DNA from: a virus
Taxonomy: Duplodnaviria > Caudoviricetes
IMG/VR virus record: IMGVR_UViG_3300009529_000010
Location: 1 to 55,204 of that record
Length of the DNA stretch: 55,204 nucleotides
Direction: 5' to 3' (one strand)
Part shown: positions 7,600 through 50,506 of the stretch, in pieces
How the letters are laid out: each line of letters opens with the position of its first letter
How positions within the stretch are numbered: position 1 is the first letter of the stretch
The notes under the pieces: generated by a model
Databases searched by the model: none
What the model was told of the DNA's origin: nothing
Seen by the model: only the letters and a program-made list of their open reading frames with translations
Made by a program: the position numbers and the translations under genes

Positions 7600-8115
7600 T
7601 TACTCCCCCGGGGGCCTAAGCACCTGCTGAATAAGGTACATGTTGACTTCGTGACGATCGGCCAGATCTTCAAGAAGGTTTTTCAACCCAATCGTCATAC
7701 GCCCATCCTTTTCTAGAGCCTTGATTGAGTACGCGATGACCTTCTGAAAATCGGCTTCCGAAACCAGAGCGCGACGATGATGGCACGAAACCTTGCACCA
7801 CCTATCACACCAAGCCATCATCTTGGGCATCAGACGATCGATATCTACTGAGGGGGTGCCAAACAAACCGACCAAGCGCTCGGCAAGGGCATCGATATCC
7901 CCTTGGATCCCCTCATCGCTGTCGTTCTCTTCGTCCCCCTCGTAAAGACGTTGGAACAGGAGATGATTGCCGTAGTAGCCGTCTCCTGACGCTTGCCAAT
8001 GGGCGTTTTGGTACATCATGTACTGTTGACGCAAACACGCCAATAGCCATTGAAGTGACTCAACGCAGCTAGAGGATTGATCCGACATGAAGGACCACTT
8101 GTCAAAGACGCTCAT
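7600..8115 (-). CDS. Dps/ferritin-like four-helix bundle protein
   Basis: HWQASGDGYYGNHLLFQRLYE...DALAER matches the Dps-type HW..G....H.LF..LY...D.LAER ferroxidase pattern. Confidence 0.75.
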   Translation of the reverse strand: MSVFDKWSFMSDQSSSCVESLQWLLACLRQQYMMYQNAHWQASGDGYYGNHLLFQRLYEGDEENDSDEGIQGDIDALAERLVGLFGTPSVDIDRLMPKMMAWCDRWCKVSCHHRRALVSEADFQKVIAYSIKALEKDGRMTIGLKNLLEDLADRHEVNMYLIQQVLRPPGE

Positions 8116-10127
8116 ACCTCAAACCCCCCAAAAGACACGTCCTTCAACGTCGAAGGAAGAAGCTCGTCCTCAACTTCTACATCGTCTAGGGACGCGTTGT
8201 GCAGCCCAAACTCATCGACAATGTTCAAGTCCCGCTGTATGTCGTTACCCTGAAACAGACCCGCGGTTTCCTCTTGGTCCGTCTCGTTCTTTGCCGCAAT
8301 CATCGCACGCTGGTAAGCTTCGGGATCTGGGTGCGGGACCACATCGGTCAAGGTCTTATTGTACTTCTGGCACTTGTTATTTGCGTTACGGAACACGCAG
8401 GATCCACAACGGTCCATCGAGAGGACAAACTTTAGGTTGTTGGCCCGGTGCTTGAGAGCACCCTCTTCACATCCGGTAGTCCCTGTCTTTGACGCATACG
8501 CTGAAGCGTCCACATACAGGTGCCCTGCCAAGCCCTCATGCTTCTTGCGGATCTGCACCAGATTCCCTGATACCTCAGAGGCAACACGGGACATGAACTT
8601 CCGGTCAATGAGCTGGTCCAACTCGTGACCCGCAAAGCCCTCGTTCATAGCCTGCTTGACCCACCGCTCTGCAACACGCTGACGATCGTTTTTCAGCGTA
8701 TCAGCCCTCTTGGTAGAGGCCAAGACTGCTCGGGCTTCTTCGTATCCCACCTCCGGGATCGTGTTGAGCCGGCCCTCGCCGTCCCCCTGATACTTGGCTT
8801 TCTTGACCCTCTGCACGATCAGCGTCGCCGAGGACTTGAGTAGGTCTGCGGGCTCCAACCGTTTCGACACAAGTGTCTTGATCTCGGATTCTGAAAGAAG
8901 GCCAGCCTTCTTCCACGCAAGCACCTGCTTTTGCACATGCTTACGCTCATTCGCCCGGATTTTCTCCTCACGCGAGACCACTTCACGAGGAGAAGGTTGA
9001 TGCTCCCGAAGGGCCTTCTCCGCTTCCTTTTTGGTCACAAGGTCTGCCGGCATTGTGTGCCGAACCTTGGTGGTCTCAATGTGTCGTTTGGGCAAGCGTA
9101 CTTCCGCCAGGAAGGCTTGACGAAGCAACTCTCGCTTGTCAGATGCCTTCTTTGACGAAGGGTCCAAACGTCCAGTGTGAATCAGATCAGGAGCATACTT
9201 GGCGTACACCCAATCCCAGTCGATCTCCTGGGGGGAAGAAACCTCTTTCAGACCCGTCGAGCAGGCACATCCAGAGCAGTCCTCTCCAGGACACGCGACC
9301 AGATACCGGGCCTTCTTCGCGGCCTTAGCAAACTGCTTTGACCATTTCCCTCGATGCAATCCAGGGAAGGCAGAAGCCCGAATGTACACGTTGCCCACCA
9401 AACCATGTTCCGCCTTGATTGCCTGAACGGCCTTCGCAATATGCTTGGCCTCCTTGGGTCGAATTTGGCTACCCAGATCCTTCAAAATCTTGTCTAAGGG
9501 CGATCCCGCTGTCGACTGGCGCATGGCCGAACGGACAAGGCTCGCCAGTTTCTCTGCATGTAGCTTGTCGTCGTCCTCGGGGCCGTCTACCTCCTCAAGA
9601 TAGAGAAGATCCTCTCGGTCCTTCAAATCGATACGGTAGATGCCATCCGTCCGGTCCCCCCAACATTCCTGAAGCTCCGTGATCATGCCGTCCGTGGGAT
9701 CGTCCGGAAGGCGCTCGGGGTCCTGATATGCGCCGGAAAGCCACGTAAGATCGACAATCCCAGTGTTCTCCCAGTCCTCTCGTGGTACAGAGACTACATT
9801 TGCTTGGCGGACCACCTCGGCCAGAGAAGGCAGGTTCGGGTCGGCCTCCTCCACATCGGTAATCCCGATGTCAGCTAGATCGAATAGAGCCTCATCGTCA
9901 GAAATGACCGTATCCGAGAAGTCGATATCATCACACTCGCCGACAATCAAACCGTCAGGAAGCTTGGCAAACCCAGACTGAGGAGGCTGGGGGAGCCCCT
10001 CTTTACCTGAAGGATCACGGACCCCATGACCGTAATCCATATCAAAGTCGAACCCGTCCATAAGGTAGTTCGAGCCCCAGTTCTCATTGAGTTCGCTGGG
10101 GAGTTTGGATTTGGCCTTCTTAGACAT
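8112..10127 (-). CDS. Large hypothetical virion/head protein
   Basis: 671 aa with an acidic N-terminus, two similar segments (EHGLVGNVYIRASAF / KHEGLAGHLYVDASAY), Cys clusters and the RVAERWVKQA tag. Confidence 0.7.
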   Translation of the reverse strand: MSKKAKSKLPSELNENWGSNYLMDGFDFDMDYGHGVRDPSGKEGLPQPPQSGFAKLPDGLIVGECDDIDFSDTVISDDEALFDLADIGITDVEEADPNLPSLAEVVRQANVVSVPREDWENTGIVDLTWLSGAYQDPERLPDDPTDGMITELQECWGDRTDGIYRIDLKDREDLLYLEEVDGPEDDDKLHAEKLASLVRSAMRQSTAGSPLDKILKDLGSQIRPKEAKHIAKAVQAIKAEHGLVGNVYIRASAFPGLHRGKWSKQFAKAAKKARYLVACPGEDCSGCACSTGLKEVSSPQEIDWDWVYAKYAPDLIHTGRLDPSSKKASDKRELLRQAFLAEVRLPKRHIETTKVRHTMPADLVTKKEAEKALREHQPSPREVVSREEKIRANERKHVQKQVLAWKKAGLLSESEIKTLVSKRLEPADLLKSSATLIVQRVKKAKYQGDGEGRLNTIPEVGYEEARAVLASTKRADTLKNDRQRVAERWVKQAMNEGFAGHELDQLIDRKFMSRVASEVSGNLVQIRKKHEGLAGHLYVDASAYASKTGTTGCEEGALKHRANNLKFVLSMDRCGSCVFRNANNKCQKYNKTLTDVVPHPDPEAYQRAMIAAKNETDQEETAGLFQGNDIQRDLNIVDEFGLHNASLDDVEVEDELLPSTLKDVSFGGFEV

Positions 10128-10915
10128 CAGTGTTTTCCTCCTTCGACCATCTCCAACTTTTCATAGTAATCCGGGTCTTCGGTAAGGTGGTCCATAGCGA
10201 TCTCCATGGCGACAAAGAAATCATCCGTGTGTTCGGTCTCAACCTGCACACCTTTCGCCAAAGAGTGTGGTTCGAACTGGTCCGGGGATCGCTTGTCAGC
10301 CAGTCCTCCTGGGAGGCGATCCATCCACCTCTTTGCAACTCTTGAAGCGGTCTTGGACGAACCCTCAGACTCGTCAAATTCCTCTTCCATTTGTTCTTCA
10401 GCCCATTCCTGGGGATCTTCACGGATCTCCTCCGCATCCTGAATCAGATCCACAATCTCGGCACGATCCTCGTCGTCCTCTTGGCGGGAAATCGCCGCCC
10501 AGTGGGGTGCGTTCGTCTCATCGTAAAGGGTGTCAGAAAGAGCAGACAAGGCTTCCACAACATTCATGTATTGCTTCCGCATGTCTTGAATCTTCATGAT
10601 GTAGCCTTTGCCACCGAGGTTCCCGTCCGGGGATACCTTGGCTGACTTGATTTTGGCAAAGGTCTGATAAGCCGAAAGGGTGTGCCCTAAAGCTGCTAAG
10701 GTTGCTCGCAGCACCTTCGCCAAAGGCTTCATGTTCTTCGGCGAGTAGTTGAAATCATTGATGATTTTCCGCTCGGAGGGCCCTACGCCACCAAATGCCC
10801 ACGCACTGGCGTCGTTGGACATATCCTTACGGAAGATAACTTCTCCAGCTACCTTCGATCGCCCTTTACGGGCGAGATACGCCTCTGCAACGCGGTTTGG
10901 ATTGGGTCGTGACAC
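10127..10915 (-). CDS. Putative head protein with C-terminal DUF5661-like domain
   Basis: The C-terminus LPGGLAD...LAKGVQVETEHTDD...EIAMDHLTEDPDYYEKL matches the DUF5661 pattern. Carries RVAEAYL and RVAKRWM tags. Confidence 0.75.
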   Translation of the reverse strand: MSRPNPNRVAEAYLARKGRSKVAGEVIFRKDMSNDASAWAFGGVGPSERKIINDFNYSPKNMKPLAKVLRATLAALGHTLSAYQTFAKIKSAKVSPDGNLGGKGYIMKIQDMRKQYMNVVEALSALSDTLYDETNAPHWAAISRQEDDEDRAEIVDLIQDAEEIREDPQEWAEEQMEEEFDESEGSSKTASRVAKRWMDRLPGGLADKRSPDQFEPHSLAKGVQVETEHTDDFFVAMEIAMDHLTEDPDYYEKLEMVEGGKH

Positions 10916-10962: not shown

Positions 10963-11820
10963 TTAGACGGCTGGGACCATTTCCGGAGGCATTCTTTCCC
11001 CCGTAATCCGATCCCATCGCACTTTGAGCCCCTTCCCGGGAACCCACTCCAGGTAATTCTGAGCAACCAGCCACAAGATCCGAGCGACGAGCATGACCGG
11101 GAGCAAGTGAAACCCCACCCCCAGGGATGCCAGCACCGCTCCAATTGCACTCTCAGGAAGGGACCCAAACAGCTCCCCCAAAGAGATCCCACCCGTGAAT
11201 CCAGCTATCAACGATGAAAAGTCCCAAGAGATCTCGGCAACGTTTAACCAGATCCAGATGAAGATCGCCGCCTTGAGCGGACGTGAGAGGTTCGGTAGGT
11301 ACTTCTGGAGGATCCGGTCTAGGGGCTGCACGATGCTATCATTCACCCGAGACAGTGCTTTTTTGAGTGCCGGGCTCGCATCGACAATCCTCTGAAGCAA
11401 GTCGGTAAGCCCTGGGAGCTTGCCCTTGGGCACAAAGTACATCGAGAACGGGAACACGTTTTTGAGCTTGGAAATGACCTTCCCAAGCGCCTTGATCCCC
11501 TCCTTCGCCATTTGCTTGATTTTCCCAGGGAGTTCGGACACATCCTTCACCCCGAGGTGCTTTTTGAGGGTCTCCCAAGCCTTGGGGGCTCGCTTCAAGA
11601 AATCCCAGACCTTCTGAAGCCGCCTCTTGATGTTGCCAAAGAACGCTTCCTTGGCCGAACCTTGCATCAAGAACCCTTCTCCAAAGGCCGTCAAAACCTC
11701 TGGGGTGACATCTCGCAATGAGGCGGTTCGCGTCTGGAACGAATGCCCCGACGCAATTTCGTGAGCCGCTCGTCTTATTTCATAGCGTAAAGCAACTCGA
11801 TATGTAACATCATCATGCAC
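10963..11820 (-). CDS. Putative virion protein with hydrophobic C-terminal helices
   Basis: N-terminal RVALRY tag and RTAS; amphipathic basic middle; hydrophobic, Gly-rich C-terminal third. Confidence 0.7.
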   Translation of the reverse strand: MHDDVTYRVALRYEIRRAAHEIASGHSFQTRTASLRDVTPEVLTAFGEGFLMQGSAKEAFFGNIKRRLQKVWDFLKRAPKAWETLKKHLGVKDVSELPGKIKQMAKEGIKALGKVISKLKNVFPFSMYFVPKGKLPGLTDLLQRIVDASPALKKALSRVNDSIVQPLDRILQKYLPNLSRPLKAAIFIWIWLNVAEISWDFSSLIAGFTGGISLGELFGSLPESAIGAVLASLGVGFHLLPVMLVARILWLVAQNYLEWVPGKGLKVRWDRITGERMPPEMVPAV

Positions 11821-16341: not shown

Positions 16342-16353
16342 TCACACACCTTT

Positions 16354-36294: not shown

Positions 36295-36298
36295 AATT

Positions 36299-36312
36299 AT
36301 GTTACGCCACCC
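36299..36312 (-). promoter_or_regulatory. Putative extended -10 (middle-type) promoter GGGTGGCGTAACAT
   Basis: 4 nt upstream of ATG 36294; near-identical to GGGTGGGGTATGAT at 51540-51553. Confidence 0.45.
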
Positions 36313-36339
36313 GGAAGAAAATCAGGACCGTTTCTGTTT
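36313..36339 (+). promoter_or_regulatory. Putative ECF-type promoter GGAAGA-N16-TGTTT
   Basis: Same boxes and spacing as the copies at 45103-45129 and 45352-45378; 7 nt before ATG 36347. Confidence 0.6.
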
Positions 36340-36346
36340 AGGAGGC

Positions 36347-36955: not shown

Positions 36956-37053
36956 CCGACAACCTCGCTGTCTTAGGTTCCCACAATGCCTACGCCTCAA
37001 CTCCAGTTGCCTTTGACGGTTCCTTTACCGCCTCCCTCAAAGCCCCCAAAGAA

Positions 37054-37092
37054 AAATCCACGGAAGGAGGCAAAAGACCCTTCCGTGGATTT
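37054..37092. terminator. Intrinsic terminator, probably bidirectional
   Basis: 14-bp inverted repeat AAATCCACGGAAGG / CCTTCCGTGGATTT between convergent genes. Confidence 0.75.
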
Positions 37093-37096
37093 CAGC

Positions 37097-37390
37097 TTAG
37101 ACTTCTACGTCTAAGCTGGAGATGGGAGTTCTTCCACTGGGCGGGAATACCCAGTGGAGGAACTTCTCAGTTTTGATTTCAACGCCCCGCAGGAAGTTTT
37201 GGAGCATGGTCACGGGAAACACGTGAATCACCGACCCTTCCTGGGTCAATGCCGAAAAGACAAACATGCCCTCTCTCGGGGGTTGAGCCCCGATCCACTT
37301 TTCCGAGATGCTGAAAAGGAAGATCACGTTCTCATCCGTGAACTCCGCTTGGTCGCCCCGAACTTGGGTGATTTTCCCCCTCAGCCGCAT
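37097..37390 (-). CDS. Hypothetical protein
   Basis: Likely start MRLRGKIT overlapping the RNR stop. Confidence 0.55.
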   Translation of the reverse strand: MRLRGKITQVRGDQAEFTDENVIFLFSISEKWIGAQPPREGMFVFSALTQEGSVIHVFPVTMLQNFLRGVEIKTEKFLHWVFPPSGRTPISSLDVEV

Positions 37391-40300
37391 TTTGAACTCC
37401 CACACGCTGTGCAAGTCACACAGCCTTCGGTGTAGATCATCGTACCCTCGGCCCCACAATCCGGGCAAGTGCGCCCGGCTTGTGTCCCGTCCTCAATGTA
37501 CTTCTTGAGGACCCGACACATCACCTTGGCGAAGCTGAACATGTCGGCCTCTCGGTCCCGCTGAAGCTGCTCCACGACATGGTGGACAGCGGCCCCATGA
37601 CGCAAACTAAGGCTCAGCATCCGGGTGAAGCTCCCCTGGTTTGGGTTATCGAAGGTTCGGACGATGTCCAGAATCTTCGAGGGATCCTCTGCCTCCCCGT
37701 AACAGAAATCGTACTTGCCTCCAGACTTGAAGGACCGCTTCACGATCCAACCCGAAGTGACCTTCTTGGGAAGCTCGATATTCTCCGAGTGCCCTCCAAA
37801 AATCTCATAGGGTTTTCCGTCCAGCAAGCCTACAAAGATCGTCCAATCAACGTAGTCATCCCCCTGCTTCATACGACTACGGTGAACATCGCACGTCAAC
37901 GACTCGGGTCGTTTAGGGGCGTCGTGGCCCGAGAATGTGATCTGGTGGTCGTCGTTGGAGACGAGCACGCCAGAGCGACACCCGTCTCGATAGACCGTGA
38001 TCCCCTTGAGCCCCTTCTTCCAGGATCTCTCGTAGATGGTTTTGACCGTCTCATACGAAACGTCCGCAGGAAGATTGATCGTCGAGCTAATAGAATGGTC
38101 TACCCAAATCCCCGCGGCAGCTTGGACATCGACCCGTGCTTCCCAGTCGATCTCTTCTGCCTGTGCCCCGGCATAGGGCGACTTGTCAAAGTCCTCATCC
38201 ATGTGCCCGGTCACCCGCATCCACTCAGCAAGGCCGTGATGGTTGACGTAGAACTCAGACCACTTGTCCCCGTTCGCGTCCACATAATCCACAGTTGCCT
38301 GCTCGTCCGTAGGGTTGATCTTCTTACGACGCTTGTACTGCGCCATGAAAACAGGCTCAATCCCTCCCGTGGTTTGAGTCAGGATAGAGACAGATCCCGT
38401 AGGAGCGGTTGTCAAGTTCGCAATCTGGCGTCGACCGTATTTCTCATAGTCTCCACGGATCCCCGCCGCATCAATGACACGGTTTAGATAGGAGTGGTCT
38501 TTCTCCTTCGAGAGATCGAATACCGGAAAAGACCCCCGCTCCTTGGCAAGGTTGACTGATTCGGTATAGCTCGCCACTGCCAAGTGTCGGTAAAACTCCC
38601 CGACCATCTCCACGGATTCCGGAGACCCGTACTTAATGCCTAACATCGCTAAGACATCCCCTACGGCGGTAACCCCCAATCCAGTTCGACGGCCGTTCTG
38701 GCAAGCCTTGCGGATGTTTTCCCATAGGTCCTGCTCCACCCTTTTGACTTCAATCGGCTCCGGGTCACGGTCGATTTTGCTCAAGACCTTGTCAATCTGC
38801 TCAAGCTCCAGGTCTACAAGATCGTCCATTAAACGTTGCGCCGACCTCGACGCTTCACGAAAAAGGTCGAAATCAAACTTTGCCTTGTCAGTAAAAGGGT
38901 TCTTTACAAACTTAGAAAGGTTTACCAGCAACAGTCTGCACGAATCCCCTACAGACAAGGGCAGTTCTGCACAAGGATTTGTACATACCGTTCTAAATCC
39001 ATTCTCAGCATAGCAATCCGCGGGAGATCCTTGCAAGATGTTGTCCCAGAACAGGAGCCCTGGTTCTGCCGAATCACGGGCATGCTTAACACACTCTTCC
39101 CACAGACTGGAAGCATCTACCATTTGTGACACTTCGGGCGTTGTCGAGTCTACAGGCCAGCGAAGTTCCACCTGCTCGTTTTTCTCGACGGCTTCCAAAA
39201 ACTCATTGGTCAGCCGGATGGAGACGTTCGCCCCGGTAACTTTAGTTCGTTCACCATGGGCATTCAGCTCGTTTTTGATCCGCATGAAGGTGTAAATGTC
39301 AGGGTGGTGAACACTCACCGTCAGCATCAAAGCCCCCCGGCGACCACTGTTATGCGCGTACAACCCATTTGCAAAGAACAAATGGACATCATCCAAAACA
39401 AGATCATAGGTGTCTTCAACCTCATAAGGCTCAAGGGTAAGGACTTCATCATGGACCAATCGTCCCGAGGACGGGGGGAGTGGAACCCCCTCCGCGATCA
39501 ACCGGTCCACGGTATTTCGAGACATGAGATGCGAAGGATCAGGGCAAAAAGCAAACTTGTTGTATTTCACTCCCAGGTCTTTCGAGGTGAAAATTGACAA
39601 CAGGCTATCTCGCTTGGCCACAAAGCCTAACGACGAGACCTTCACGCTCTCACCTCCCAGGAACTCAATAAATCGACGTTGACTCGACGTACCTACAACC
39701 GACAAGGAATACAGGTCTTGCCACCCTTTGTTAGAACGGTCTTCCCGATATAGCGAAGTGGCAATCCCGTGAGCTGCAAGAACGGTCTTAAGAACCTGAA
39801 GGAAGGAAGAGGACGCCGAACTGAACACGTAGCCCTTTTTCGGACCTGACGCATAACCGTCCGCATCGAAGTACCCCGCAATGAAAGACCGCACGATTTC
39901 TTGCGAAGCCTGTAAAAGACGGCTCGGGAAGCGGAGGTCCCCAGACTTTTCTTTACTGAATCCGTTGATCTTGAGGAACTGCACAACCTGCTCAGATTGG
40001 ATACGCAACCGCTCGCAGTTACCGTCTCCAGGGGAGACTCGTGGCTCCATCCCCCCAAAAGACGACCGTACGCATGCCTTCACTTTTTCTGTGATTTGTG
40101 GCCAATCGTTTGATAGAGCAATCGACCACGCATGGTTCACGGTTGAAGCTTTAGGGATCTCGCAAATCGAGCCGTCCCCGTAGCTTTGACCGATAAGGTA
40201 TGCAAGATCCTCAGTAAGGACCGTTGGAAGATCATAAGCCTTTAGTCTATTTCCAGCGCCTTCCATATCTGGAATTTCCAATGAAACAGGGCTTCCTTCC

Positions 40301-41148
40301 CAACCCTCTCCCAACACATTTGTGATCGCGGTTCCTACAGAGAACTGGCTAACAGGAATTTCACCGTGAATCGTGTGAAACACATGATCGGCTGAAGCGC
40401 GGATTTCCCAACCTTTTCGAGTTGTAATTTTTTGAGTGAGCTTTGTGCTTTTGAGCACATCCCGTACCGTTCGCCAACCCTCGGCTGTCCAAACTCGGGC
40501 CCCCGCTCTAATCTTTTCGATCGGAAAAATCCCTCTGTCCGACAACACAAGAGTGTCGGCCGCTAAGCATTGAGCCACCTCACGGGTGGTGTTTGAAAAG
40601 CGCTCCATAAACACGCCAATGCCGTCCGTGGTCTTAGCAGCGTTGGCGGTTGGTAGTCCCCGAGGACGCAGCGTGGAGAGGTCCACACCGACGCCACCAC
40701 GGCGCTTCATAATCTGCGTAAGTTGTTGGTCTGTTCGAAGGATTCCACCATAACTATCATATGGAGATTTCACAACGTAACAGTTTGAAAAAGTTTGAAC
40801 ACGATAGGGGTTGCCAACTCCTGACATAGGAGACCCTTGGGGAACAACGCTCCAATCAGAGAGCATGTCAAAGATCTCACCCTCCGTTAGAGGGTTGGGA
40901 TACCTCGCTTCAATGCGTGCAAACTCCCGAGCAAGGCGTCGGTGCATGTCTACCGGAGTAGATTCCAAGTACCGGCCTTCCTCATCCTGAAGGGCGTACT
41001 TGGTCACAAACACATTGGCCGCAAGAGCATCCCCTTGGAAGTATTCCAAGGAGGCTTCAATTGCTTCGTCAAAGGAGTATGTCACCGATGCAGCATCATT
41101 CAAAGAGGGGGTAATGGATGCTTTGGAGAAAGAAGAGTTGTCTGTCAT
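37381..41148 (-). CDS. nrdJ: Class II (adenosylcobalamin-dependent) ribonucleotide reductase, intein-containing
   Basis: SNC, GVGVDLS.LRP, Q|SGRRGA, EPG, TNPCAE, APTG, KGITVYRDG and a C-terminal Zn ribbon with SKCG. Start MTDN (GAGG RBS) preferred over 41229. Confidence 0.93.
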   Translation of the reverse strand: MTDNSSFSKASITPSLNDAASVTYSFDEAIEASLEYFQGDALAANVFVTKYALQDEEGRYLESTPVDMHRRLAREFARIEARYPNPLTEGEIFDMLSDWSVVPQGSPMSGVGNPYRVQTFSNCYVVKSPYDSYGGILRTDQQLTQIMKRRGGVGVDLSTLRPRGLPTANAAKTTDGIGVFMERFSNTTREVAQCLAADTLVLSDRGIFPIEKIRAGARVWTAEGWRTVRDVLKSTKLTQKITTRKGWEIRASADHVFHTIHGEIPVSQFSVGTAITNVLGEGWEGSPVSLEIPDMEGAGNRLKAYDLPTVLTEDLAYLIGQSYGDGSICEIPKASTVNHAWSIALSNDWPQITEKVKACVRSSFGGMEPRVSPGDGNCERLRIQSEQVVQFLKINGFSKEKSGDLRFPSRLLQASQEIVRSFIAGYFDADGYASGPKKGYVFSSASSSFLQVLKTVLAAHGIATSLYREDRSNKGWQDLYSLSVVGTSSQRRFIEFLGGESVKVSSLGFVAKRDSLLSIFTSKDLGVKYNKFAFCPDPSHLMSRNTVDRLIAEGVPLPPSSGRLVHDEVLTLEPYEVEDTYDLVLDDVHLFFANGLYAHNSGRRGALMLTVSVHHPDIYTFMRIKNELNAHGERTKVTGANVSIRLTNEFLEAVEKNEQVELRWPVDSTTPEVSQMVDASSLWEECVKHARDSAEPGLLFWDNILQGSPADCYAENGFRTVCTNPCAELPLSVGDSCRLLLVNLSKFVKNPFTDKAKFDFDLFREASRSAQRLMDDLVDLELEQIDKVLSKIDRDPEPIEVKRVEQDLWENIRKACQNGRRTGLGVTAVGDVLAMLGIKYGSPESVEMVGEFYRHLAVASYTESVNLAKERGSFPVFDLSKEKDHSYLNRVIDAAGIRGDYEKYGRRQIANLTTAPTGSVSILTQTTGGIEPVFMAQYKRRKKINPTDEQATVDYVDANGDKWSEFYVNHHGLAEWMRVTGHMDEDFDKSPYAGAQAEEIDWEARVDVQAAAGIWVDHSISSTINLPADVSYETVKTIYERSWKKGLKGITVYRDGCRSGVLVSNDDHQITFSGHDAPKRPESLTCDVHRSRMKQGDDYVDWTIFVGLLDGKPYEIFGGHSENIELPKKVTSGWIVKRSFKSGGKYDFCYGEAEDPSKILDIVRTFDNPNQGSFTRMLSLSLRHGAAVHHVVEQLQRDREADMFSFAKVMCRVLKKYIEDGTQAGRTCPDCGAEGTMIYTEGCVTCTACGSSKCG
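39349..40569 (-). mobile_element. Intein with LAGLIDADG endonuclease in RNR (407 aa)
   Basis: Starts CLAADTLV, has ASADH, IGQSYGDG and IAGYFDADG, ends FFANGLYAHN followed by Ser+1. Confidence 0.92.
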
Positions 41149-41241
41149 TTGTGCCTCAATCAAACGAGTGCGTTCGTGTCGGGCAGACACGCGCACAGGA
41201 GGGATCCCTATAAGATCCCTAACGCCCATCCTGCTAAGGAT

Positions 41242-43573: not shown

Positions 43574-43599
43574 TCTCGTGAATTGATAACAGGATTACC

Positions 43600-44380
43600 A
43601 CTGGATCAGTCTATAGGCACACCTCACCCACTACCTCAAACCATCCCTTGATGGGGGGTTGAAGTGCTCTATTCTCTAGTTTTTGAGGGTTCCCAGGCCC
43701 TCTGGGCCTTCGGAGGCCAGGAGTGGATCGAAGTCAGTGTTGTCTGTTGGTGTACGGAGTGTAGTAGGACTATGGTTAGTATCTGTATTTGAAGTAGAAG
43801 TATTTGTAGTGAAAGTAGTAGTATTGAAAGTTGGAGTAGTGAGTGAGATTAGAACAGAAGAAACACTCTCTCTAAATTCTCTTAACTAGTTAATTACTAG
43901 AGAGGGAAGAATCCCTACACCGTCAACCAGATGGCATAGGGTTTCTAGAACCTCTAAAAGAGAACGAGAGGTCTCTTGAGAGTGTCCATAGACAGACATC
44001 CCCTGAAAGGGGATACCCGGGACTAGGAGTCCTAGGTGATCAGTCATGGTCATCTTGGAGATCATCTTGACAAAGGGTTTGAAGGAAGATCAACCTGTTC
44101 AGTGCAACCTTGAGGGTCTCTCGATCCCTACTGTCTTGGAGGCTTCGTTGTCCCTCCAGGGTTTCCCCTGCTTCCCCACTGCTCTGTGCTCAATACCGAA
44201 AACCCTGTATGGTGGTCATGGGAAGACACGACCCTTTCAGGGTCTGGTTGTCCGGCGTTAGATTCAGAGCGAGCGTTCCGCTCGACCCTCCTGAGACTTC
44301 CATGGAGGGCTCTGTCCCCTCAAAAAAGAAGGGCGAAGACAGCGCCTTCACATTACCCACCTGAGAGGAAAACGACTGCT
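43600..44380. other. Non-coding, hairpin-rich region with an AT-rich, strand-skewed tract (candidate replication origin or ncRNA locus)
   Basis: No credible ORF; GTA/GAA-rich tract ~43740-43860; palindrome TTAACTAGTTAA at 43882-43893; several short hairpins. Confidence 0.45.
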
Positions 44381-44381
44381 T

Positions 44382-44408
44382 AAAAGGAAAAGCCCCCTCC
44401 TGGGGGCT
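44382..44408 (-). terminator. Intrinsic terminator
   Basis: AGCCCCC-N4-GGGGGCT hairpin followed on the minus strand by TTTTCCTTTT, just after the 44435 stop. Confidence 0.8.
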
Positions 44409-44434
44409 AGGAAGGTCCCTGAGACCGGGAGCAC

Positions 44435-45139: not shown

Positions 45140-45173
45140 AAAAAAGGCGGTTAGGGAACTTCCCTAACCGCCT
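45140..45173 (-). terminator. Intrinsic terminator
   Basis: 13-bp perfect stem AGGCGGTTAGGGA / TCCCTAACCGCCT followed by a T run on the minus strand. Confidence 0.85.
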
Positions 45174-45182
45174 GTGAAAGGT

Positions 45183-45344
45183 TTAGAACGAAAGGCCATC
45201 GTCGCCGTAGAGTTCCTCCAAGGAGGGGTCTCCGGAAGCCTTCATGAAGGCCACGTCCTCGTCGGACAGGGTCTCCTGAAAGTCATCGCGGATGTCGTCG
45301 AGCGCGTCGGCCAGGATTTCGGGATCGATGTAGAACGGGTCCAT
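45183..45344 (-). CDS. Small, highly acidic protein (53 aa; not in the ORF track)
   Basis: MDPFYIDPEILADALDDIRDDFQETLSDEDVAFMKASGDPSLEELYGDDGLSF; flanked by its own promoter motif and terminator. Confidence 0.65.
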   Translation of the reverse strand: MDPFYIDPEILADALDDIRDDFQETLSDEDVAFMKASGDPSLEELYGDDGLSF

Positions 45345-45383: not shown

Positions 45384-46649
45384 TTATCGTAAAAGCCAGC
45401 GCTGCGCAACACGCGCAGCCATGTGGGACCGAGGCTCCCCCATCACGTCATCTTGCTCCATCAAGTCGAAGTTCATGTATTCGTTAGGTTCGGTATCTGA
45501 GAAGGAAAACCAAGGTTCCAGAGGAATTTGATCCTCTGGGAGATCGGGGGCGTACTTGGGCTGGCGGTAGAACAGCTCCACCACATCCTCGTCAGACTTC
45601 TTGCCGACCCGGGCACCGAAGGCAAACTCCGTGGAGAACTCCAGATCGTCGAGAATCTTGTCCACGACCTTTTGGATCGCGGGGTTTCGCGCAACATGAT
45701 CCTCGATGAACTTCTCGACGTTTTTACCTCCCGAGCCAAAGGTTTTGGTGACTACACCAGTGTCGTTCGAGATCCCCAGGTTTCGCGCAGCCTGGTTCCC
45801 CACCTGCTTCATCACCACGCGGTAGAAGTAGCTGGGGTCCTTGTTGAGGGCGGAAAGTTGGGACTTGTTCGGCAGTCGGTACTTGGTCTTGCCCTTGCCA
45901 AGCTCGCGGAAGAACTCCTTCATCAACTCTGCCTTCTCAGGCTTGCGCCCGAAGACACGATCAATAGCGTTATCCAAAATAGCTCGAATCTTAGTCCCTC
46001 CTGGGAAGCTCTGGGGGGAGTTTAGGGCCATCAGGAGGATGTTTTCACGAACATTCGGGTCGTCCACTGACACAGTAGGTTGCTGCTGGATAAAGCTGTC
46101 CCTCTCACCTTCCTGAGAAGGGACGCCGACTTCCATCTTCTCCCGCAGACGCTTCTTTTCGTTCAATGCGAGCCTCTTTGCTCCAGTTGCGGCGATGCCG
46201 CGTACTTGAGCTGGGGTCAGGTCACCTTCCAAAAGGGCCTGAACTTTGGGACGGTCCTTGCCGATTGCTTGGCCGGCGGAGTAGAACTGTCTGCGATTTG
46301 CCCGTCCACCTGGAAGGCTAGATTCTGAGACGATCTCCTGGGCCAGATCCTCCGGATCAATGCCGGAAACCCCCCGCAGGATCGAGGCGACGGCCTTGGC
46401 CGCCTCATCGTACATTCCCGTGTTCCGGTTCGTACTCCAGTTCGGGTGAAGTCCTCCGTCTTTGGACGCGGCCCACTCATCGGCATCTCCAAAACCTTGA
46501 GCCTTCCGGCGGATCCAAGTTCCTGGAGGAACCCCAGCCACTCCCTCCAAGAAGCTCAAACGGGCCAAGGCGTCCATCGAGAAGGCTGCTAGGACGTGAC
46601 GGGCTGCGAGCCGCAGCGTAACTTTTTGGAGCAAATCTTCGGAAGCCAT
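45384..46649 (-). CDS. Divergent ECF-sigma-like protein with virion-protein tags
   Basis: Region-2-like MYDEAAKAVASIL...DPEDLAQEIV...GIAATGAKRLALNEKKR; region-4-like LDNAIDRV...NQAARNLGIS; terminal tags RLAARHVL and RVAQRWLLR. Confidence 0.55.
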   Translation of the reverse strand: MASEDLLQKVTLRLAARHVLAAFSMDALARLSFLEGVAGVPPGTWIRRKAQGFGDADEWAASKDGGLHPNWSTNRNTGMYDEAAKAVASILRGVSGIDPEDLAQEIVSESSLPGGRANRRQFYSAGQAIGKDRPKVQALLEGDLTPAQVRGIAATGAKRLALNEKKRLREKMEVGVPSQEGERDSFIQQQPTVSVDDPNVRENILLMALNSPQSFPGGTKIRAILDNAIDRVFGRKPEKAELMKEFFRELGKGKTKYRLPNKSQLSALNKDPSYFYRVVMKQVGNQAARNLGISNDTGVVTKTFGSGGKNVEKFIEDHVARNPAIQKVVDKILDDLEFSTEFAFGARVGKKSDEDVVELFYRQPKYAPDLPEDQIPLEPWFSFSDTEPNEYMNFDLMEQDDVMGEPRSHMAARVAQRWLLR

Positions 46650-46678
46650 GGGAGAAAGTCTCTAACAAAGCCCAGGAT

Positions 46679-46692
46679 ATAAGAAAATCACC
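46679..46692 (-). promoter_or_regulatory. Putative late promoter (GGTGATTTTCTTAT)
   Basis: Copy of the 14-nt motif about 30 nt upstream of ATG 46649. Confidence 0.45.
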
Positions 46693-46719
46693 ATGTTAGG
46701 CGATCCTGGCTCTTTTTTC

Positions 46720-46748
46720 TTGACATGAACTTTGGCTTGGAGTAAAAG
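46720..46748 (+). promoter_or_regulatory. Host sigma70-type promoter
   Basis: TTGACA-N17-TAAAAG preceded by a T tract, about 100 nt upstream of ATG 46848. Confidence 0.55.
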
Positions 46749-46847
46749 AGGGTCGCTCTCGCCGTATGGCACGAGCTTCATTTCAAGAACCCAGAACCCT
46801 TAGCTGAGTTGCTACGCAACCAAGCACCCCGGAGAAGAAGCTGACGC

Positions 46848-48044
46848 ATGACTGAAAGTAAGAGCCGTCTTACGGCTAAAGACCTTTTTGAGCCCCTCCT
46901 GTACGTCCTCGGCAAGCACACGGGATTTGATCCTCAAATCTCGGTCCCGCATGAGGCTTTGATGAACGAAGTTCTCGAAGTGGCAGGAATTGATCCAACC
47001 TCTAGTGTGCTCACTGGTCGAGATGGCCTGTATCGGCGCGTCCACTTTGCCTGGAGAAATCAGTGTAAGGGATACACGGGTGTGTCCCGTGTCCCGTACT
47101 GCACCAAGGGTGCGCAGAGGGGGCACTGGGGGCTGACGGAAGCGGGGGTCTCCCGAGCACGGGAGCTGGTCTCGGTCTTCGATCAAGATCCGTCTCAGGA
47201 GATCCTCACTACTCTCAGTCAGGAGGCTCTTCGGCTTTCTATCGAAGAGGTGGAAAACACTCCCGATGAGCCCGATCCCGGGCTACTCCCTGCGCCGCGC
47301 GTTGCGGCGCGCCGTAACGAAACGGCACAGTGGATCGAAGAAAAGGGGCCCAAGTTGATGGCTCGGCTTCGGCAGCATCTCTCCCTCAAGATGCCCCGGT
47401 CCCTGGTCATGGATAAGGTAGACGACCATATCCAGACTTTCCTGACCAACCTCATCAGGCGCGATGCTCTCGCCCGTTACATCGCGGAGGGCAAGTCGAT
47501 CCCCCTCTCGCGCGTATGTGCCTGGTGTCGACGGTCGGCCTACTCGGACATTCGAGACGAGGGGCGCGATCCGGTGACTCGTACCCTTCACGGTGCCCTG
47601 ACCCGAGATGAGTGGACGCAACGGAACGAGTCCAACTGGACCACCGAGGTAATCCCCACCACGATCAACCAGAGTGACAGGCTCTCCCTGGGATCCAGTT
47701 ACGGTATGGGGTCTTACGATCCCGAGGCACAGGGGGTCAATGCCATGGATTTCCTGGTGGCGGACTCCGATGTGGAGGTGGAGGTGGCGGACTCCGAGGC
47801 ATTCGAGCACACCTACGACATTGTCGCCCAGGCAATCTCAGATGCACTCCGAGGCAAAGAGCACGATGCTGCTCTCCACCACCAGGTCCTCATGGATCGT
47901 TTCGTGAAGCGGCTCACCGTCGCGGAATTGGCAGAGAAACACAACATCCCCAAGGAGACGGCGACGGCAGTTGTGGGGCGTATCCGAAAGGCAGTACGCA
48001 AAGCCCGAGATCAGGGTGCCTTCAGCGAAGTCCTGAGAGACTAG
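46848..48044 (+). CDS. Mrr_N-like winged helix fused to a sigma-70-family factor
   Basis: N-terminal LFEPLLYVL...RVHFA...RGHWGLTEAG (Mrr_N-like); region-2-like VDDHIQTFL...WCRRSAYSDIR; region-4 HTH LTVAELAEKHNIPKETATAVVGRIRKAVR. Confidence 0.65.
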   Translation: MTESKSRLTAKDLFEPLLYVLGKHTGFDPQISVPHEALMNEVLEVAGIDPTSSVLTGRDGLYRRVHFAWRNQCKGYTGVSRVPYCTKGAQRGHWGLTEAGVSRARELVSVFDQDPSQEILTTLSQEALRLSIEEVENTPDEPDPGLLPAPRVAARRNETAQWIEEKGPKLMARLRQHLSLKMPRSLVMDKVDDHIQTFLTNLIRRDALARYIAEGKSIPLSRVCAWCRRSAYSDIRDEGRDPVTRTLHGALTRDEWTQRNESNWTTEVIPTTINQSDRLSLGSSYGMGSYDPEAQGVNAMDFLVADSDVEVEVADSEAFEHTYDIVAQAISDALRGKEHDAALHHQVLMDRFVKRLTVAELAEKHNIPKETATAVVGRIRKAVRKARDQGAFSEVLRD

Positions 48045-49390
48045 GGCTCAGGCTCCCAGGCGAGCCATTCCTCAATCGTAGAGGGTTCTTCTACGATTGA
48101 GGAAGCCCTCTTCCCGAAAAACTGAGCATCGGGATACACCGACAGCAGGAGACGGGCTGAGTTATCTTGGCCCGTTTTGCTATGTGCGCCGAGAAAGCCC
48201 GTGATCTTCTCGTAGAGATCGGACTTTCGCTGGTGAAGATCGGCGGCGATGATGCCGGCCTCCTCTCGAAGCCGGACACAGGCAGACATGCCGTGATTGG
48301 CGGTCCGCTGGAGATACCCGTACATCCCGTAGGTTCGAGCTGCCTTGAGCGAAGCCATCCGCTTGCTCGGGTTCCAAGAAAGGTGCGATCCCCGTTTTTG
48401 AAGGATGTCGTTTGCAAACATCTTCTTGAGAAGAAGATTGACCGTATCCTCCCCGTGGTGTGCAGCAAGATCGGAGGCGATCCTCGAAAGAGTCTCCGGA
48501 CGCATTTGATTCTCAAAGCGAAGAAAGTGCTCTTGAATCTGAGACATGATCACCGGGGCATCTGTGTGAGTACCCAGTGTAGCCAGCTTCGGCATTGAGT
48601 CCCGGTAGGTGGCTACCAGGAGCTTTGCGGGGGTGCTCTTGGCACGCTTGGCGTGCGTAGCCAGGAAGTCCACAACATCCTTGTCCTTCGAAAGAGACGC
48701 GCGGATAATCTTGGAGGCGGATCGGTGCAGTTTTCTAGAAGCCGCTTCGCACATCTTTTGGATGCCCTTGGTATACCCATACAGGCCCCCAGGCACGACC
48801 GCGGCGGCCTTTGACATTTCCTTCTTGGCCATCTCGATGGCCCCTTCCCGTGTCGGATGCCCTCCAAGCACTCCACCAAAACGGTTGAGGATTTTGAACT
48901 GGGGCTTTTGTCCGCGAATAGGGCCTCGGCTTGGCTCCTTGGTTACAAAGAGCGCCGTGCCCGGAATGGGGTCCGCATCCTTCAAGTCATCACGGGAAGC
49001 CGACTTGAGCTGCGTATCCAAGGCTGCCCAAGAGTCCTCGATAGACGACGCCACTCGGGCCAGCCTTTCCCGGGGTGGCGGGACATTCTCAAAATCGACC
49101 TTTGGAAGGATAGCTTCCTTCCACGCATGGGGGAACTCAGGCTCGTAGGTGACCTCATAGGCATACCCGTCAAGGTTTGAGAAATCAGCGTGGCGGATAA
49201 AGTACACGAGACCCTTGCCGGTCATGTCCGTAGCGATACGGAACCCGAGGGGGATCCGTAGAGATGTCGCCGGAAACAAGTTACGGGCAGCGTTGACGAA
49301 ATCCTCGTTGACGAAGATACGTCCAGTCTGCTCAAGAAGTTGAGGGTTCCCCTTTGAGGGGGCATACTCGATTGAAGTTTTGTCAGTCAT
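48041..49390 (-). CDS. Mosaic putative head-internal protein with an internal repeat
   Basis: Two G.YGY...FL..H.K......A.LL...Y modules and multiple [KR]xAS motifs. Confidence 0.7.
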   Translation of the reverse strand: MTDKTSIEYAPSKGNPQLLEQTGRIFVNEDFVNAARNLFPATSLRIPLGFRIATDMTGKGLVYFIRHADFSNLDGYAYEVTYEPEFPHAWKEAILPKVDFENVPPPRERLARVASSIEDSWAALDTQLKSASRDDLKDADPIPGTALFVTKEPSRGPIRGQKPQFKILNRFGGVLGGHPTREGAIEMAKKEMSKAAAVVPGGLYGYTKGIQKMCEAASRKLHRSASKIIRASLSKDKDVVDFLATHAKRAKSTPAKLLVATYRDSMPKLATLGTHTDAPVIMSQIQEHFLRFENQMRPETLSRIASDLAAHHGEDTVNLLLKKMFANDILQKRGSHLSWNPSKRMASLKAARTYGMYGYLQRTANHGMSACVRLREEAGIIAADLHQRKSDLYEKITGFLGAHSKTGQDNSARLLLSVYPDAQFFGKRASSIVEEPSTIEEWLAWEPEP

Positions 49391-49423: not shown

Positions 49424-50506
49424 TCATTTACCGGCTTGGAGATGCCGATTCGCCACGCGGGAGGCCATGCGCATCATTGCGATCTCGTCTTGGGTGGATT
49501 CGGTGCTTTGCCTCCATCGGGAGACATCAGAGGCTACAGCCTCAACGTCCTCCATGAAGGGATATTCTTCCATAGGGATGTCTACCCCTAAAGAACGAAG
49601 CTTATTGACGGCGATGACCACATCATCAAATGCGGTTTCCAAGTCGAGTACACTTTGTGAGTAATCCTCGAAGGCTTCTGGAGAAGAAGCCCTCTTATGT
49701 TGAGCGTACCCAAACTTTTGAATCAGGCTAGCTAGTTCCCGACCACGCCGCTGGGCCCCTTTGACCAGAATCTTTTCCGTGAAGCGAGGAGGATCCTTTT
49801 CAAGGGCCCATCCTACAGGACGGACATCCTCAAACCCAGCTTCACGAAGAGTTGTAACCACGCGCTGAACATGCTTATTCAACAGGGGGAGGGCCAACCG
49901 CGAGTCTTTGAGCAAAATGTCACTGGTCACTGGGAGGGCAATCTCGACCCCATCTCGCACAACCTGGACTTGAACTTTGCCCGGCTGGAACCGAGCAAAC
50001 CTTTGCTGCCCATCCTCTGTGATCTCACGTTGGATCGCACAAGCCGGTCTCCTCACCAAGTAATTCGGCCACCGTTCAATCCATTTTTTGTAGAACTCGC
50101 CTTTTGGGACGACCCGGACGGTTTCTTCCGGGTCCGGGATATTGGGATCTGCCACGTAGACGTTCAGATCATCATCCACATCGAATACGAGGCTGGCGTG
50201 TGACCACTCTCTCCCCTCGGGGTTCCAAGCGATCATCACCGGGTCCCCTTGATCCGTCCATTCCTTGAGTTGACGGACGGTAGAGGGGGTGACCAAAGTT
50301 GCCCGGAACCCGTAGTGCTGAGCACAAGCCAACGCATTCTCCCAGGAGGCCCCTTGCATAGCGCGAGCCCCCATCACACGGTTCACCTCATCCTCGGTGC
50401 AGTCCAACCCGTGGGCGCGTAGAGCCATGCACATGGAAGCCGACATACACGAATATTGGCTCCGCTGCCGTACAGGGGTGACGTTAGCTTTGGCTTGCTT
50501 ACGCAC
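49424..50506 (-). CDS. C39-like cysteine peptidase domain protein
   Basis: QRSQYSC..AS..MAL, WSHA and VYVADP (Q/C/H/D catalytic pattern); C-terminal RVANRHL tag. Confidence 0.75.
   Translation of the reverse strand: MRKQAKANVTPVRQRSQYSCMSASMCMALRAHGLDCTEDEVNRVMGARAMQGASWENALACAQHYGFRATLVTPSTVRQLKEWTDQGDPVMIAWNPEGREWSHASLVFDVDDDLNVYVADPNIPDPEETVRVVPKGEFYKKWIERWPNYLVRRPACAIQREITEDGQQRFARFQPGKVQVQVVRDGVEIALPVTSDILLKDSRLALPLLNKHVQRVVTTLREAGFEDVRPVGWALEKDPPRFTEKILVKGAQRRGRELASLIQKFGYAQHKRASSPEAFEDYSQSVLDLETAFDDVVIAVNKLRSLGVDIPMEEYPFMEDVEAVASDVSRWRQSTESTQDEIAMMRMASRVANRHLQAGK

Follow-up and report, generated by a model that had tools for sequence, protein, structure and literature searches.

We lean towards reading the 421-residue protein encoded at 45384–46649 as an ECF-like sigma-type factor of a huge phage lacking a detectable RNA polymerase of its own, which would redirect the host polymerase. 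An earlier note, made from the letters alone, had called this protein a candidate ECF-like sigma, and that claim survives in part: a two-domain helical model and predicted docking on the polymerase β′ subunit agree with it, whereas the Pfam signatures of sigma regions 2 and 4 are missing. As judged from structure modelling, the description of the protein as a highly divergent sigma-like factor is moderately supported.

Gene and predicted architecture

The window (the whole stretch analysed, 55,204 nucleotides), a 55-kb fragment, comes from a huge phage and is collinear with a 618-kb relative. The open reading frame (ORF) of the sigma-like protein was recovered as described, with a 100% match and no internal stops, and the segments singled out in the earlier note lie at residues 98–107 (DPEDLAQEIV), 151–167, 225–232 and 287–294. 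The features of the locus are the following.

45384..46649, minus strand: coding sequence of the 421-residue sigma-like protein (P0001), from the ORF list; stop codon at 45384–45386
46416..46649, minus strand: family-specific N-terminal extension, residues 1–78, with the hallmark block D..ARLS.LEG.AGV.PGTW
46590..46613, minus strand: N-terminal tag RLAARHVL, residues 13–20, within a helix spanning residues 2–22 (pLDDT 85–89)
46125..46415, minus strand: sigma2-like core, residues 79–175
46314..46358, minus strand: region-2.2-like helix DPEDLAQEIVSESSL, residues 98–112, predicted contact with the β′ clamp helices
46059..46124, minus strand: acidic low-confidence linker, residues 176–197 (pLDDT below 50 at 183–191; 5 D/E against 1 K/R)
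45630..46058, minus strand: sigma4-like C-terminal domain, helical and containing a helix-turn-helix, residues 198–340
45414..45629, minus strand: disordered acidic tail, residues 341–412 (pLDDT 36–59; 17 D/E against 6 K/R in 72 residues)
45387..45413, minus strand: C-terminal tag RVAQRWLLR, residues 413–421
45401..45419, minus strand: 8-bp hairpin with a short T run behind it, lying across the codons for the C-terminal tag, found by consensus scan alone; possibly a weak terminator
46650..46847, no strand assigned: divergent intergenic region of 198 bp common to both sigma-like genes, holding GATTTTCTTA at 46680–46689 on the minus strand
46848..48044, plus strand: sigma-like neighbour of 398 residues with a C-terminal sigma region-4 helix-turn-helix, divergently transcribed

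The AlphaFold2 model, built from an alignment of 128 relatives, has a pLDDT of 81.2 and consists of two helical domains (residues 1–175 and 198–340) that mostly exceed 90; with four sequences only, the prediction was unusable (pLDDT 47). In a structure comparison against 48,161 chains, the best match was phiEco32 gp36 (PDB 9m7y), and sigma entries were strongly over-represented. The sigma2 and sigma4 matches are collinear but weak, all fold scores falling inside the noise range stated for the tool. Foldseek, from which the earlier note had expected a recognisable sigma fold, returned nothing at E ≤ 0.001 in either PDB or BFVD.

Sequence comparison gives a similarly faint signal. No sigma model of Pfam or PHROGs matches the 421-residue protein, whose best Pfam match is to an unrelated family (E 0.11); a six-frame search of the window with Sigma70_r2 (PF04542) gave no match at E ≤ 10, and the protein was likewise missed by Pfam Sigma70_r4 and r4_2 and by a six-frame r4_2 search. 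Three of the 128 relatives match Sigma70_r4-type Pfam models at E < 0.01, the other scattered Pfam matches being to general helix-turn-helix families. Profile–profile alignment of the family with hhalign yielded a single match to E. coli RpoD, pairing target residues 84–112 with RpoD 384–414 in region 2.1–2.2 (E 0.29), and paired residues 217–301 with region 4 of RpoE (123–171; E 0.07). Searched against 497 kb, the family profile singles out phage G gp3 (E 6.5e-4), whose annotation reads RNA polymerase sigma factor, and SigF (E 0.0019) and FliA (E 0.011) stand on top of the search of PDB sequences; a narrower profile of 12 sequences found no sigma in the PDB. Direct hhalign comparisons with phage G gp3, the divergent neighbour and the ORF at 16983–17594 align the helix-turn-helix core only (E 0.012–0.051).

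The protein belongs to a family of 165 relatives, most of which share only the N-terminal ~170 residues, and which have been met only on huge-phage contigs and among unnamed metagenome proteins; none of the clusters looked up for them has an annotated member. No match at 1e-3 was returned by tblastn of the 421-residue protein against 50,697 phage records, no member was found by the family profile in Tunturiibacter phage Tunturi_5, and the ESM Atlas held no usable match for the protein or for the last 1100 residues of the long form P0008; P0008 also found nothing among PDB sequences. The near-invariant residues of the extension across the 128 sequences are D26, R30, L34, E35, G36 and W71, and with G126 they make up the invariant set of the family, which thus lies mostly within the extension; in the region-2.2-like helix, Q104 is invariant in 12 relatives. 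A helix-turn-helix recurs in the C-terminal halves across the family. The N-terminal module is also fused to unrelated C-terminal parts resembling the ORF at 48041–49390 (P0121) and the VP2-like ORF at 54239–55117 (P0066), and in some relatives to extensions of 700–1300 residues without a family match. Pfam recorded nothing in six of seven long fused forms and one weak irrelevant match in the seventh. Among ten relatives compared with PHROGs, P0026 has weak transcription-regulator and sigma matches (best E 2e-5) and P0008 one weak match to a family without assigned function, the remaining eight having none.

Predicted docking on the β′ subunit

The complex of residues 1–180 with residues 240–330 of E. 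coli β′, comprising the clamp helices, was predicted with the E. coli subunit standing in for that of the host. The three runs gave ipSAE values of 0.73, 0.74 and 0.70, the best of three controls scoring 0.00. Of solved complexes, 58 of 80 attain that mark; of mismatched pairs, 2 of 110 do so. Between runs at least 64% of contacts agree, with a partner pLDDT of 82 or more. The earlier note had suggested this very pairing as a check, and with the E. coli stand-in the prediction passes it (0.73 against 0.00).

In the predicted interface, β′ residues 267–298 meet target residues 95–115, 24–28 and 43–49, and the β′ residues lie within the main sigma site, around 260–309. The contact passes through the DLAQE helix, the segment the earlier note had assigned to region 2, with contact residues 95–96, 98, 100–101, 104–105, 107–108, 111–112 and 114–115 in the area of the region-2.2-like helix, while residues 24–28 and 43–49 of the N-terminal extension touch β′ 287–291. 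Such a pass speaks of likeness, not of binding, and may stem from the model remembering solved holoenzymes. By sequence inspection, the only counterpart of the aromatic-rich melting segment that follows region 2.2 in RpoD is F122–Y123.

Genome setting, upstream motifs and the terminal tag

The sigma-like gene lies 38 kb from the terminase and 43 kb from the portal gene, adjoining a P-loop kinase, the second sigma-like gene, and nucleotide-metabolism and replication genes. The divergent neighbour matches Pfam Sigma70_r4 at E 5e-4 (20 bits, under the 24.1 cut-off) and the sigma family phrog_1740 at E 0.002, and phmmer found no relevant match for it in the PDB. The divergent pair, the 421-residue gene and its sigma4-bearing neighbour, is kept in LR745208.1, in L010/G001 and in L011. 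A minimal sigma of the sigma4-only type is also encoded in the window, at 16983–17594. No Pfam β or β′ domain was detected in three relatives, two of which are 90–92% complete, so these phages depend on the enzyme of the host. They nevertheless show no conventional sigma2 domain, as Sigma70_r2 reached its cut-off in none of the three.

Two upstream signals proposed earlier did not hold up. For the 14-nucleotide motif said to precede virion genes, we took the 14-mer at the upper edge of the region described, a guess at the motif meant, and found 4 matches with up to 3 mismatches where 3.65 were expected. A shorter core, GATTTTYYYH, occurs 10 times against 4.7 expected, a count reached by 2 of 100 shuffles; it also precedes genes of the replication block and is not specific to one class of genes. 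The supposed GGAAGA/GTTT promoters are likewise not above chance: GGAAGA-N15-19-GTTT has 3 matches against 0.92 expected, and 7 of 100 shuffles reach 3. No promoter motif exceeded chance in these scans, and a consensus scan of 46650..46847 called no sigma-70-type promoter.

The terminal tag fared better. It is present at both ends of the protein, as the earlier note had observed, and the strict pattern R[VLIM]A.R[WYFH], defined post hoc from hits already seen, occurs 7 times in 6 of the 49 ORFs, where 2000 residue shuffles average 0.13 and never reach 7. The N-terminal copy is kept in close homologues, and the orthologue in the 618-kb relative has the tag at the same C-terminal place. Of the 144 relatives that have the [LM]EG anchor, 50 show a tag no more than 35 residues upstream of it; a second tag at least 150 residues downstream is found in 20 (1.7 expected, at most 7 in 500 shuffles), and in 9 of these 20, the query included, it is no more than 18 residues away from the C-terminus. 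The tag is conserved as a peptide, and a repeat at the DNA level was rejected as its explanation because the codons differ among copies. Counts of the back-translated strict tag in five relatives, near those of a reversed-pattern control, are uninformative because, where the query has W, the relatives use Y, F or H. The other tagged ORFs of the window are these.

49424..50506, minus strand: C39-like papain-fold peptidase, C-terminal tag RVANRH at residue 350 of 360; tag kept in the G001 orthologue
10127..10915, minus strand: DUF5661 protein, tag RVAKRW directly before the DUF5661 domain
8112..10127, minus strand: 671-residue Cys-rich protein, internal tag RVAERW; tag loosely kept in G001
10963..11820, minus strand: 285-residue protein, N-terminal tag RVALRY, hydrophobic C-terminal half; no family match

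Three of them adjoin the terminase and portal genes, and a small protein with an N-terminal tag is the direct neighbour of the portal in the 618-kb relative. None of the four has a virion annotation, the only assignments being DUF5661, C39-like peptidase or nothing. The claim that putative head proteins share the tag is accordingly narrowed: several ORFs do have it in common, but no carrier is annotated as a virion protein. Of eight tagged proteins in G001, six have no PHROG match and two match families without assigned function. A role of the tag as a clamp-binding peptide, suggested by analogy with T4 late transcription, was set aside because the tag is found on a peptidase, a hydrophobic protein and proteins without assigned function and not on replication enzymes.

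Competing readings and known systems

It is improbable that the protein has no role in transcription and is a helical protein of another kind (for instance an internal or assembly protein) whose sigma likeness amounts to a generic helical bundle with a helix-turn-helix. The noise-range fold scores, the blank Foldseek result, the empty Pfam and PHROG searches and the placing of most invariant residues in an extension without a sigma counterpart would all suit such a protein; the complex test, passed by only 2 of 110 mismatched pairs and here placing the contact on each partner where a sigma would be expected to meet β′, argues the other way, as do the over-represented, collinear sigma entries and the independent weak sequence matches that fall on the corresponding sigma regions. 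The docking prediction, having passed its controls, would serve equally for a sigma mimic that occupies the β′ clamp helices and blocks or displaces the host sigma, or tethers other activities to polymerase, its helix-turn-helix being used otherwise. With the N-terminal module fused to unrelated C-termini and to extensions of 700–1300 residues, it could be a general, portable docking module and not sigma2, and the melting segment of RpoD is reduced to F122–Y123. We nevertheless consider a mimic unlikely: sigma2 preceding sigma4, an acidic linker between them and collinear alignment to whole sigma chains fit a complete initiation factor, and the helix-turn-helix is recurrent in the C-terminal halves of the family.

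The earlier note had gone further, proposing that the sigma-like product is made late, loaded into the capsid by its tags, trimmed and injected, to aim the host core polymerase before any phage protein synthesis. Nothing computed here supports this part of the reading; some observations would suit it. The tag is enriched, sits at protein termini and is conserved at the level of the peptide, and it is shared with a papain-fold peptidase and with a protein whose C-terminal half is hydrophobic, both of a kind ejected by other phages; three tagged genes adjoin the terminase and portal here, and a small tagged protein adjoins the portal of the 618-kb relative. In a clade without a Pfam RNA polymerase a ready-made sigma would be of use, and T4 Alt, a packaged and injected transcription protein, and the virion RNA polymerases of N4 and phiKZ are precedents. 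We still regard it as very unlikely, given that no tagged protein has a virion annotation, that the gene sits in a kinase, sigma-like, nucleotide and replication block outside the head module, and that neither the supposed virion motif nor the GGAAGA/GTTT sites exceed chance. Its N-terminal tag helix, moreover, is modelled inside a folded domain (pLDDT 85–89), which argues against a trimmed leader, and the 55-kb window yielded no major capsid protein, scaffold or prohead protease to which the tag could be linked. Very little credence likewise goes to R[VL]AxR[WHY] as a capsid address label, by which the sigma-like factor, the papain-fold peptidase, and membrane-active and DNA-binding proteins would be co-injected.

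In the sigma-type reading that we prefer, a very divergent factor with sigma2 and sigma4 and without sigma3 would be made in the infected cell. Its region-2.2-like helix (D101-L-A-Q104-E105) is predicted to dock on the β′ clamp helices of the host core polymerase, aided, it may be, by the family-specific N-terminal extension, and the C-terminal helix-turn-helix would read promoter DNA and so redirect the host polymerase to phage promoters. The factor probably acts together or in sequence with the divergent sigma-like neighbour at 46848–48044. The R[VL]AxR[WHY] helices at both ends represent a short conserved peptide motif, borne in the clade also by the peptidase, the DUF5661 protein, the VP2-like DNA-binding protein and others, which would most likely dock its carriers onto one common partner.

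Among known systems, phiEco32 gp36, whose domains span residues 1–214 (PMC12276001), is like the 421-residue protein as modelled in having a clamp-helix N-terminal domain, a linker and a C-terminal helix-turn-helix domain without sigma3, and in serving a phage without a detectable polymerase of its own. The protein studied here differs in being twice the size, in its ~78-residue conserved N-terminal extension, 140-residue C-domain, 80-residue acidic tail and repeated terminal tag, and in having no detectable similarity to Pfam sigma models. With the group 4 (ECF) sigmas, such as E. coli RpoE and Mycobacterium SigL, it would share the sigma2 plus sigma4 architecture, and it has the hhalign match to RpoE region 4 noted above; it departs from them in lacking the Pfam Sigma70_r2 and r4_2 signatures and an adjoining anti-sigma gene, its partner being a second sigma-like protein. 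Polymerase-less jumbo phages encode minimal (sigma4-only) or complete sigma factors that recruit the host enzyme (Iyer et al. 2021, PMC7824862; PMC13282480). The strategy of host-enzyme recruitment would be the same here, although the 421-residue family is neither of the minimal type nor near cellular RpoD, and the available text of those two papers describes neither this family nor a terminal tag.

With T4 Alt and the N4 and phiKZ proteins, the 421-residue protein would have in common the proposed logic alone, head-borne carriage and reprogramming at time zero; those proteins are enzymes demonstrated in virions, whereas this one is known here from its gene alone. The virion RNA polymerases of N4 and phiKZ are mentioned in PMC12282133 and PMC7318152, and our literature search found no packaged sigma factor.

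Huge phages, of which there is almost no experimental biology, must steer the host enzyme when they have no RNA polymerase of their own. Were the tag a capsid address label, the phage would bring along a ready-made subunit of its own to set the promoter specificity of the host polymerase, a third time-zero transcription route besides host sigma-70 promoters and packaged polymerases. The terminal tag across unrelated proteins is a testable lead to a common partner or sorting route in huge phages. If the sigma-type reading is true, the 421-residue protein would be a sigma-type factor beyond the current family models, of a kind that routine annotation would miss, and its N-terminal module could be a portable docking handle for RNA polymerase.

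Sequence family and predicted fold of the sigma-like protein

The subject of this analysis is one entry of the ORF list:

45384-46649, minus strand, ORF of 421 residues encoding the sigma-like protein

The segments that the earlier note had read as ECF regions 2 and 4 lie at residues 98-107, 151-167, 225-232 and 287-294. Only three close homologues were found among 5.8 billion clusters, and the protein had no match among 50,697 phage records. A profile of the protein and its three homologues gathered 165 proteins at E <= 0.001 from 1.84 billion representatives; all ten family clusters looked up are metagenomic, unnamed or ‘hypothetical’. In most relatives the similarity is confined to the first ~170 residues, and some reach 1100-1700 residues, with the homologous unit N-terminal and a remainder of no recognisable family. 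The C-terminal part of one fused relative (P0121) resembles ORF 48041-49390 of the window, and that of another (P0066) resembles ORF 54239-55117, whose VP2-like part is there joined to the sigma-like N-module.

Sequence alignments to known sigma factors are faint. Comparison of the family with E. coli RpoD by hhalign gave a single match, residues 84-112 with RpoD 384-414 (E 0.29), a stretch that includes LDLIQEGNIGLMK, and comparison with RpoE paired residues 217-301 with RpoE 123-171 (E 0.07). In the 497 kb of phage G, the family profile found gp3, annotated as an RNA polymerase sigma factor (E 6.5e-4). In a profile search of PDB sequences SigF ranked first (E 0.0019, none of its stretches passing individually) and FliA next (E 0.011), with the LexA DNA-binding domain just behind; a narrower 12-sequence profile recovered no sigma at all. 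Sigma70_r4-type Pfam matches at E < 0.01 occur in only 3 of 128 relatives, amid scattered general helix-turn-helix matches.

AlphaFold2, given 128 relatives, modelled the protein at a mean pLDDT of 81.2 as two helical domains (residues 1-175 and 198-340, mostly pLDDT > 90), with an acidic low-confidence linker and a disordered acidic tail ending in a tag helix. When the 996 chains ranked highest by Foldseek were compared again, 13 of the 50 rows were chain F of bacterial initiation complexes, which by convention we take to be sigma; one such entry names ECF sigma L in its title. These matches keep their order, model residues 78-169 aligning with 191-255 of a Thermus chain and 214-327 with 343-423. 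The sigma-like reading of the earlier note is moderately supported: the order-keeping alignments to sigma chains speak for it, and against it stand the lack of any Foldseek match at E <= 0.001 in PDB or BFVD and of any sigma match in Pfam or PHROG.

The earlier note had suggested modelling the protein with the beta' clamp helices, and the predicted complex scored well above controls. Residues 1-180, with the family alignment, were modelled with beta' 240-330 of E. coli, a stand-in for that of the phage's own host. The ipSAE was 0.73, 0.74 and 0.70, versus 0.00 for the best of three controls. Of 80 solved complexes 58 attain that mark, as do 2 of 110 mismatched pairs. The runs share at least 64% of contacts, with partner pLDDT at or above 82. 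The predicted interface joins beta' 267-298 to residues 95-115 (the DPEDLAQEIVSE helix) and also takes in residues 24-28 and 43-49 of a family-specific extension; sigma docks mainly on beta' residues around 260-309. This modelled result is evidence of a resemblance to sigma2 and not of binding, and the model may be reproducing holoenzyme structures that it has memorised. The weak alignments to RpoD and RpoE fall on the same sigma regions.

The terminal tag and its carriers

A short peptide (R[VL]AxR[WHY]) occupies residues 13-20 and 413-421 of the sigma-like protein. The pattern R[VLIM]A.R[WYFH] occurs seven times in 6 of the 49 ORFs of the window, against a shuffle mean of 0.13 and with none of 2000 shuffles reaching seven, a figure flattered by a pattern composed after the hits were seen. 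The window copies differ in codons, so the tag is conserved at the peptide level. Among 144 relatives bearing an [LM]EG anchor, 50 have a tag within 35 residues upstream of it and 20 a second tag at least 150 residues downstream (1.7 expected, maximum 7 in 500 shuffles). For 9 of the 20, the sigma-like protein included, the second tag is no more than 18 residues away from the C-terminus; in long fused forms it falls near residue 417, where the sigma-like unit ends. A tag shared with other proteins, as the earlier note had described, is real by both its enrichment and its family conservation.

In G001, a 618-kb IMG/VR relative, four orthologues still bear the tag. The sigma-like protein has it at both ends, a C39-like peptidase at the C-terminus, and the DUF5661 and VP2-like proteins directly ahead of a small C-terminal domain. 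The G001 orthologue of ORF 8112-10127 keeps it loosely. Across all of G001 a looser pattern gives 14 matches versus 6.55 expected, a modest enrichment because the maximum of 200 shuffles is also 14. The idea that the carriers are head proteins was not borne out, the other tagged ORFs matching DUF5661, a C39-like peptidase, or nothing.

Tags and tag-like sequences were seen at these loci:

49424-50506, minus strand, papain-fold domain (Peptidase_C39-like) spanning residues 8-142, tag right at the C-terminal end, kept in G001
54239-55117, minus strand, last 60 residues matching the fusellovirus VP2 DNA-binding capsid protein family (E 3e-10), preceded by tag-like KRAEKWIQDA, conserved in G001
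1-489, minus strand, small protein adjoining the portal, degenerate remnant only (MRRVAT)
16039-16353, minus strand, unlisted ~100-aa ORF in a 315-bp gap, starting with tag-like KEVATKWLLKQ
263594-264067 of G001, small protein adjoining the portal, matching phrog_2859 (function unknown), clear N-terminal tag KRVAARWLLRQ

In LR745208.1 (locus L007, 430002-434024) a second kind of terminal motif, ..IRLAHENPALRP.LLPLLK.., is repeated in a family member and the next ORF, and at locus L010 of G001 a 376-aa protein carries RLAYQSKDPELRR-like motifs at each terminus; the two may represent another form of the tag described above.

Genomic setting

The window, a single IMG/VR record classed as linear and 55,204 bases long, is 12% complete by CheckV and hence a piece cut from a very large genome. 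Scans with PHROG located, besides a clamp loader, sliding clamp, exonucleases, UvsX-like recombinase, helicase and ribonucleotide reductase, two structural-block landmarks:

505-2313, portal
3009-6281, minus strand, large terminase with inserted segments

The portal shares 64% identity with its counterpart in LR745208.1 (uncultured phage, 485 kb); its kinship to Tunturiibacter phage Tunturi_5 (308 kb) and to phage G of Bacillus (497 kb) is weaker. Between its portal and VP2-like genes, the window runs collinear with G001 (618,736 bases, 92% complete) at 264-317 kb. Three minus-strand products are oversized: the terminase (1090 aa), the helicase (32205-35750, 1181 aa) and the ribonucleotide reductase (37381-41229, 1282 aa). 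Their extra segments, lying between the halves of the host-protein match, resemble endonuclease or unknown PHROGs (phrog_9666, phrog_4645) and are probably inteins or homing-endonuclease insertions. The stretches 43574-44434 (861 bp) and 36295-37380 (1086 bp, with a plus-strand frame of 219 aa) hold no convincing minus-strand ORF and possibly contain small genes or RNAs.

Divergent from the sigma-like gene is a plus-strand gene (46848-48044, 398 aa) whose product matches Sigma70_r4 at its C-terminus (E 5e-4, below cut-off) and phrog_1740 sigma, and looks region-2-like by eye at residues ~190-250; of the two proteins, this one is perhaps the more conventional sigma. The pair is kept in LR745208.1 (L007), the 618-kb relative and L011. 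The wider conserved block is ordered as C39-like peptidase tagged at its C-terminus, 326-449-aa protein, sigma4-bearing gene (other strand), sigma-like gene and P-loop kinase. A 203-aa sigma4-only protein (16983-17594, minus strand; Sigma70_r4_2 33.6 bits, over cut-off; PHROG sigma families 1e-12) has two Sigma70_r4_2-like stretches, a ‘minimal sigma’ with orthologues in G001, G002 and LR745208.1.

The DNA motifs of the earlier note fared less well. Its 14-nt motif upstream of virion genes, taken by our guess as the 14-mer at the finding's upper edge, is matched 4 times when up to 3 mismatches are allowed, versus 3.65 expected. The core GATTTTYYYH has 10 versus 4.7 expected (2 of 100 shuffles reach 10), lying upstream of the sigma-like gene and ORF 10127-10915 but also of replication-block ORFs 20041-20799 and 35743-36294. 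The proposed promoter GGAAGA-N15-19-GTTT has 3 versus 0.92 expected (7 of 100 shuffles reach 3), and no sigma-70-type promoter was called in the 198-bp divergent intergenic region. A strong terminator-like hairpin (45145-45173, minus strand; 13 bp, 8 G-C pairs, T6) follows a 53-aa acidic ORF (45183-45344) just downstream of the sigma-like gene and suggests a short transcription unit.

Possible readings: a sigma made in the cell or carried in the virion

We lean towards reading the protein as a very divergent ECF-like sigma-type factor. Made inside the infected cell, it would use its region-2.2-like helix and its N-terminal extension to dock on the beta' clamp helices, as modelled, and its C-terminal helix-turn-helix domain would read phage promoters. 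Fusion of the N-module to unrelated C-termini in relatives would also suit a sigma mimic or portable docking module that binds RNA polymerase without initiation, which we consider unlikely. Scores below threshold leave room for a helical protein unrelated to transcription, and this we judge improbable to the same degree.

Lower still we place the hypothesis of the earlier note, a sigma packaged in the virion and injected. Both the tag and the set of proteins that carry it hint at this, and such a strategy would suit a phage without its own polymerase: Pfam beta and beta' domains were absent from three relatives (two of them 90-92% complete), in a scan that might overlook very divergent phage polymerases. 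The same relatives have no Sigma70_r2 above cut-off but do have sigma4-only proteins. However, no tag carrier can be linked to the head, the gene lies outside the structural block (38 kb from the terminase, 43 kb from the portal), the N-terminal tag helix is modelled within the fold rather than as a leader, and the proposed late and early promoter motifs are not above chance. In a search of the article text of openly available papers, passages of PMC7318152, PMC12282133, PMC7824862 and PMC13282480 describe no virion-packaged or injected sigma, which does not prove absence.

According to reviews (excerpts of PMC7824862 and PMC13282480), polymerase-less jumbo phages usually encode sigma factors in order to use the host enzyme, and an excerpt of PMC7162821 reports sigma-70 and anti-sigma proteins in some huge phages. 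The finding is real and moderately interesting: huge phages have a sigma-like family, new and unannotated, whose N-terminal module is unusual and whose conserved terminal tag also occurs on other phage proteins.
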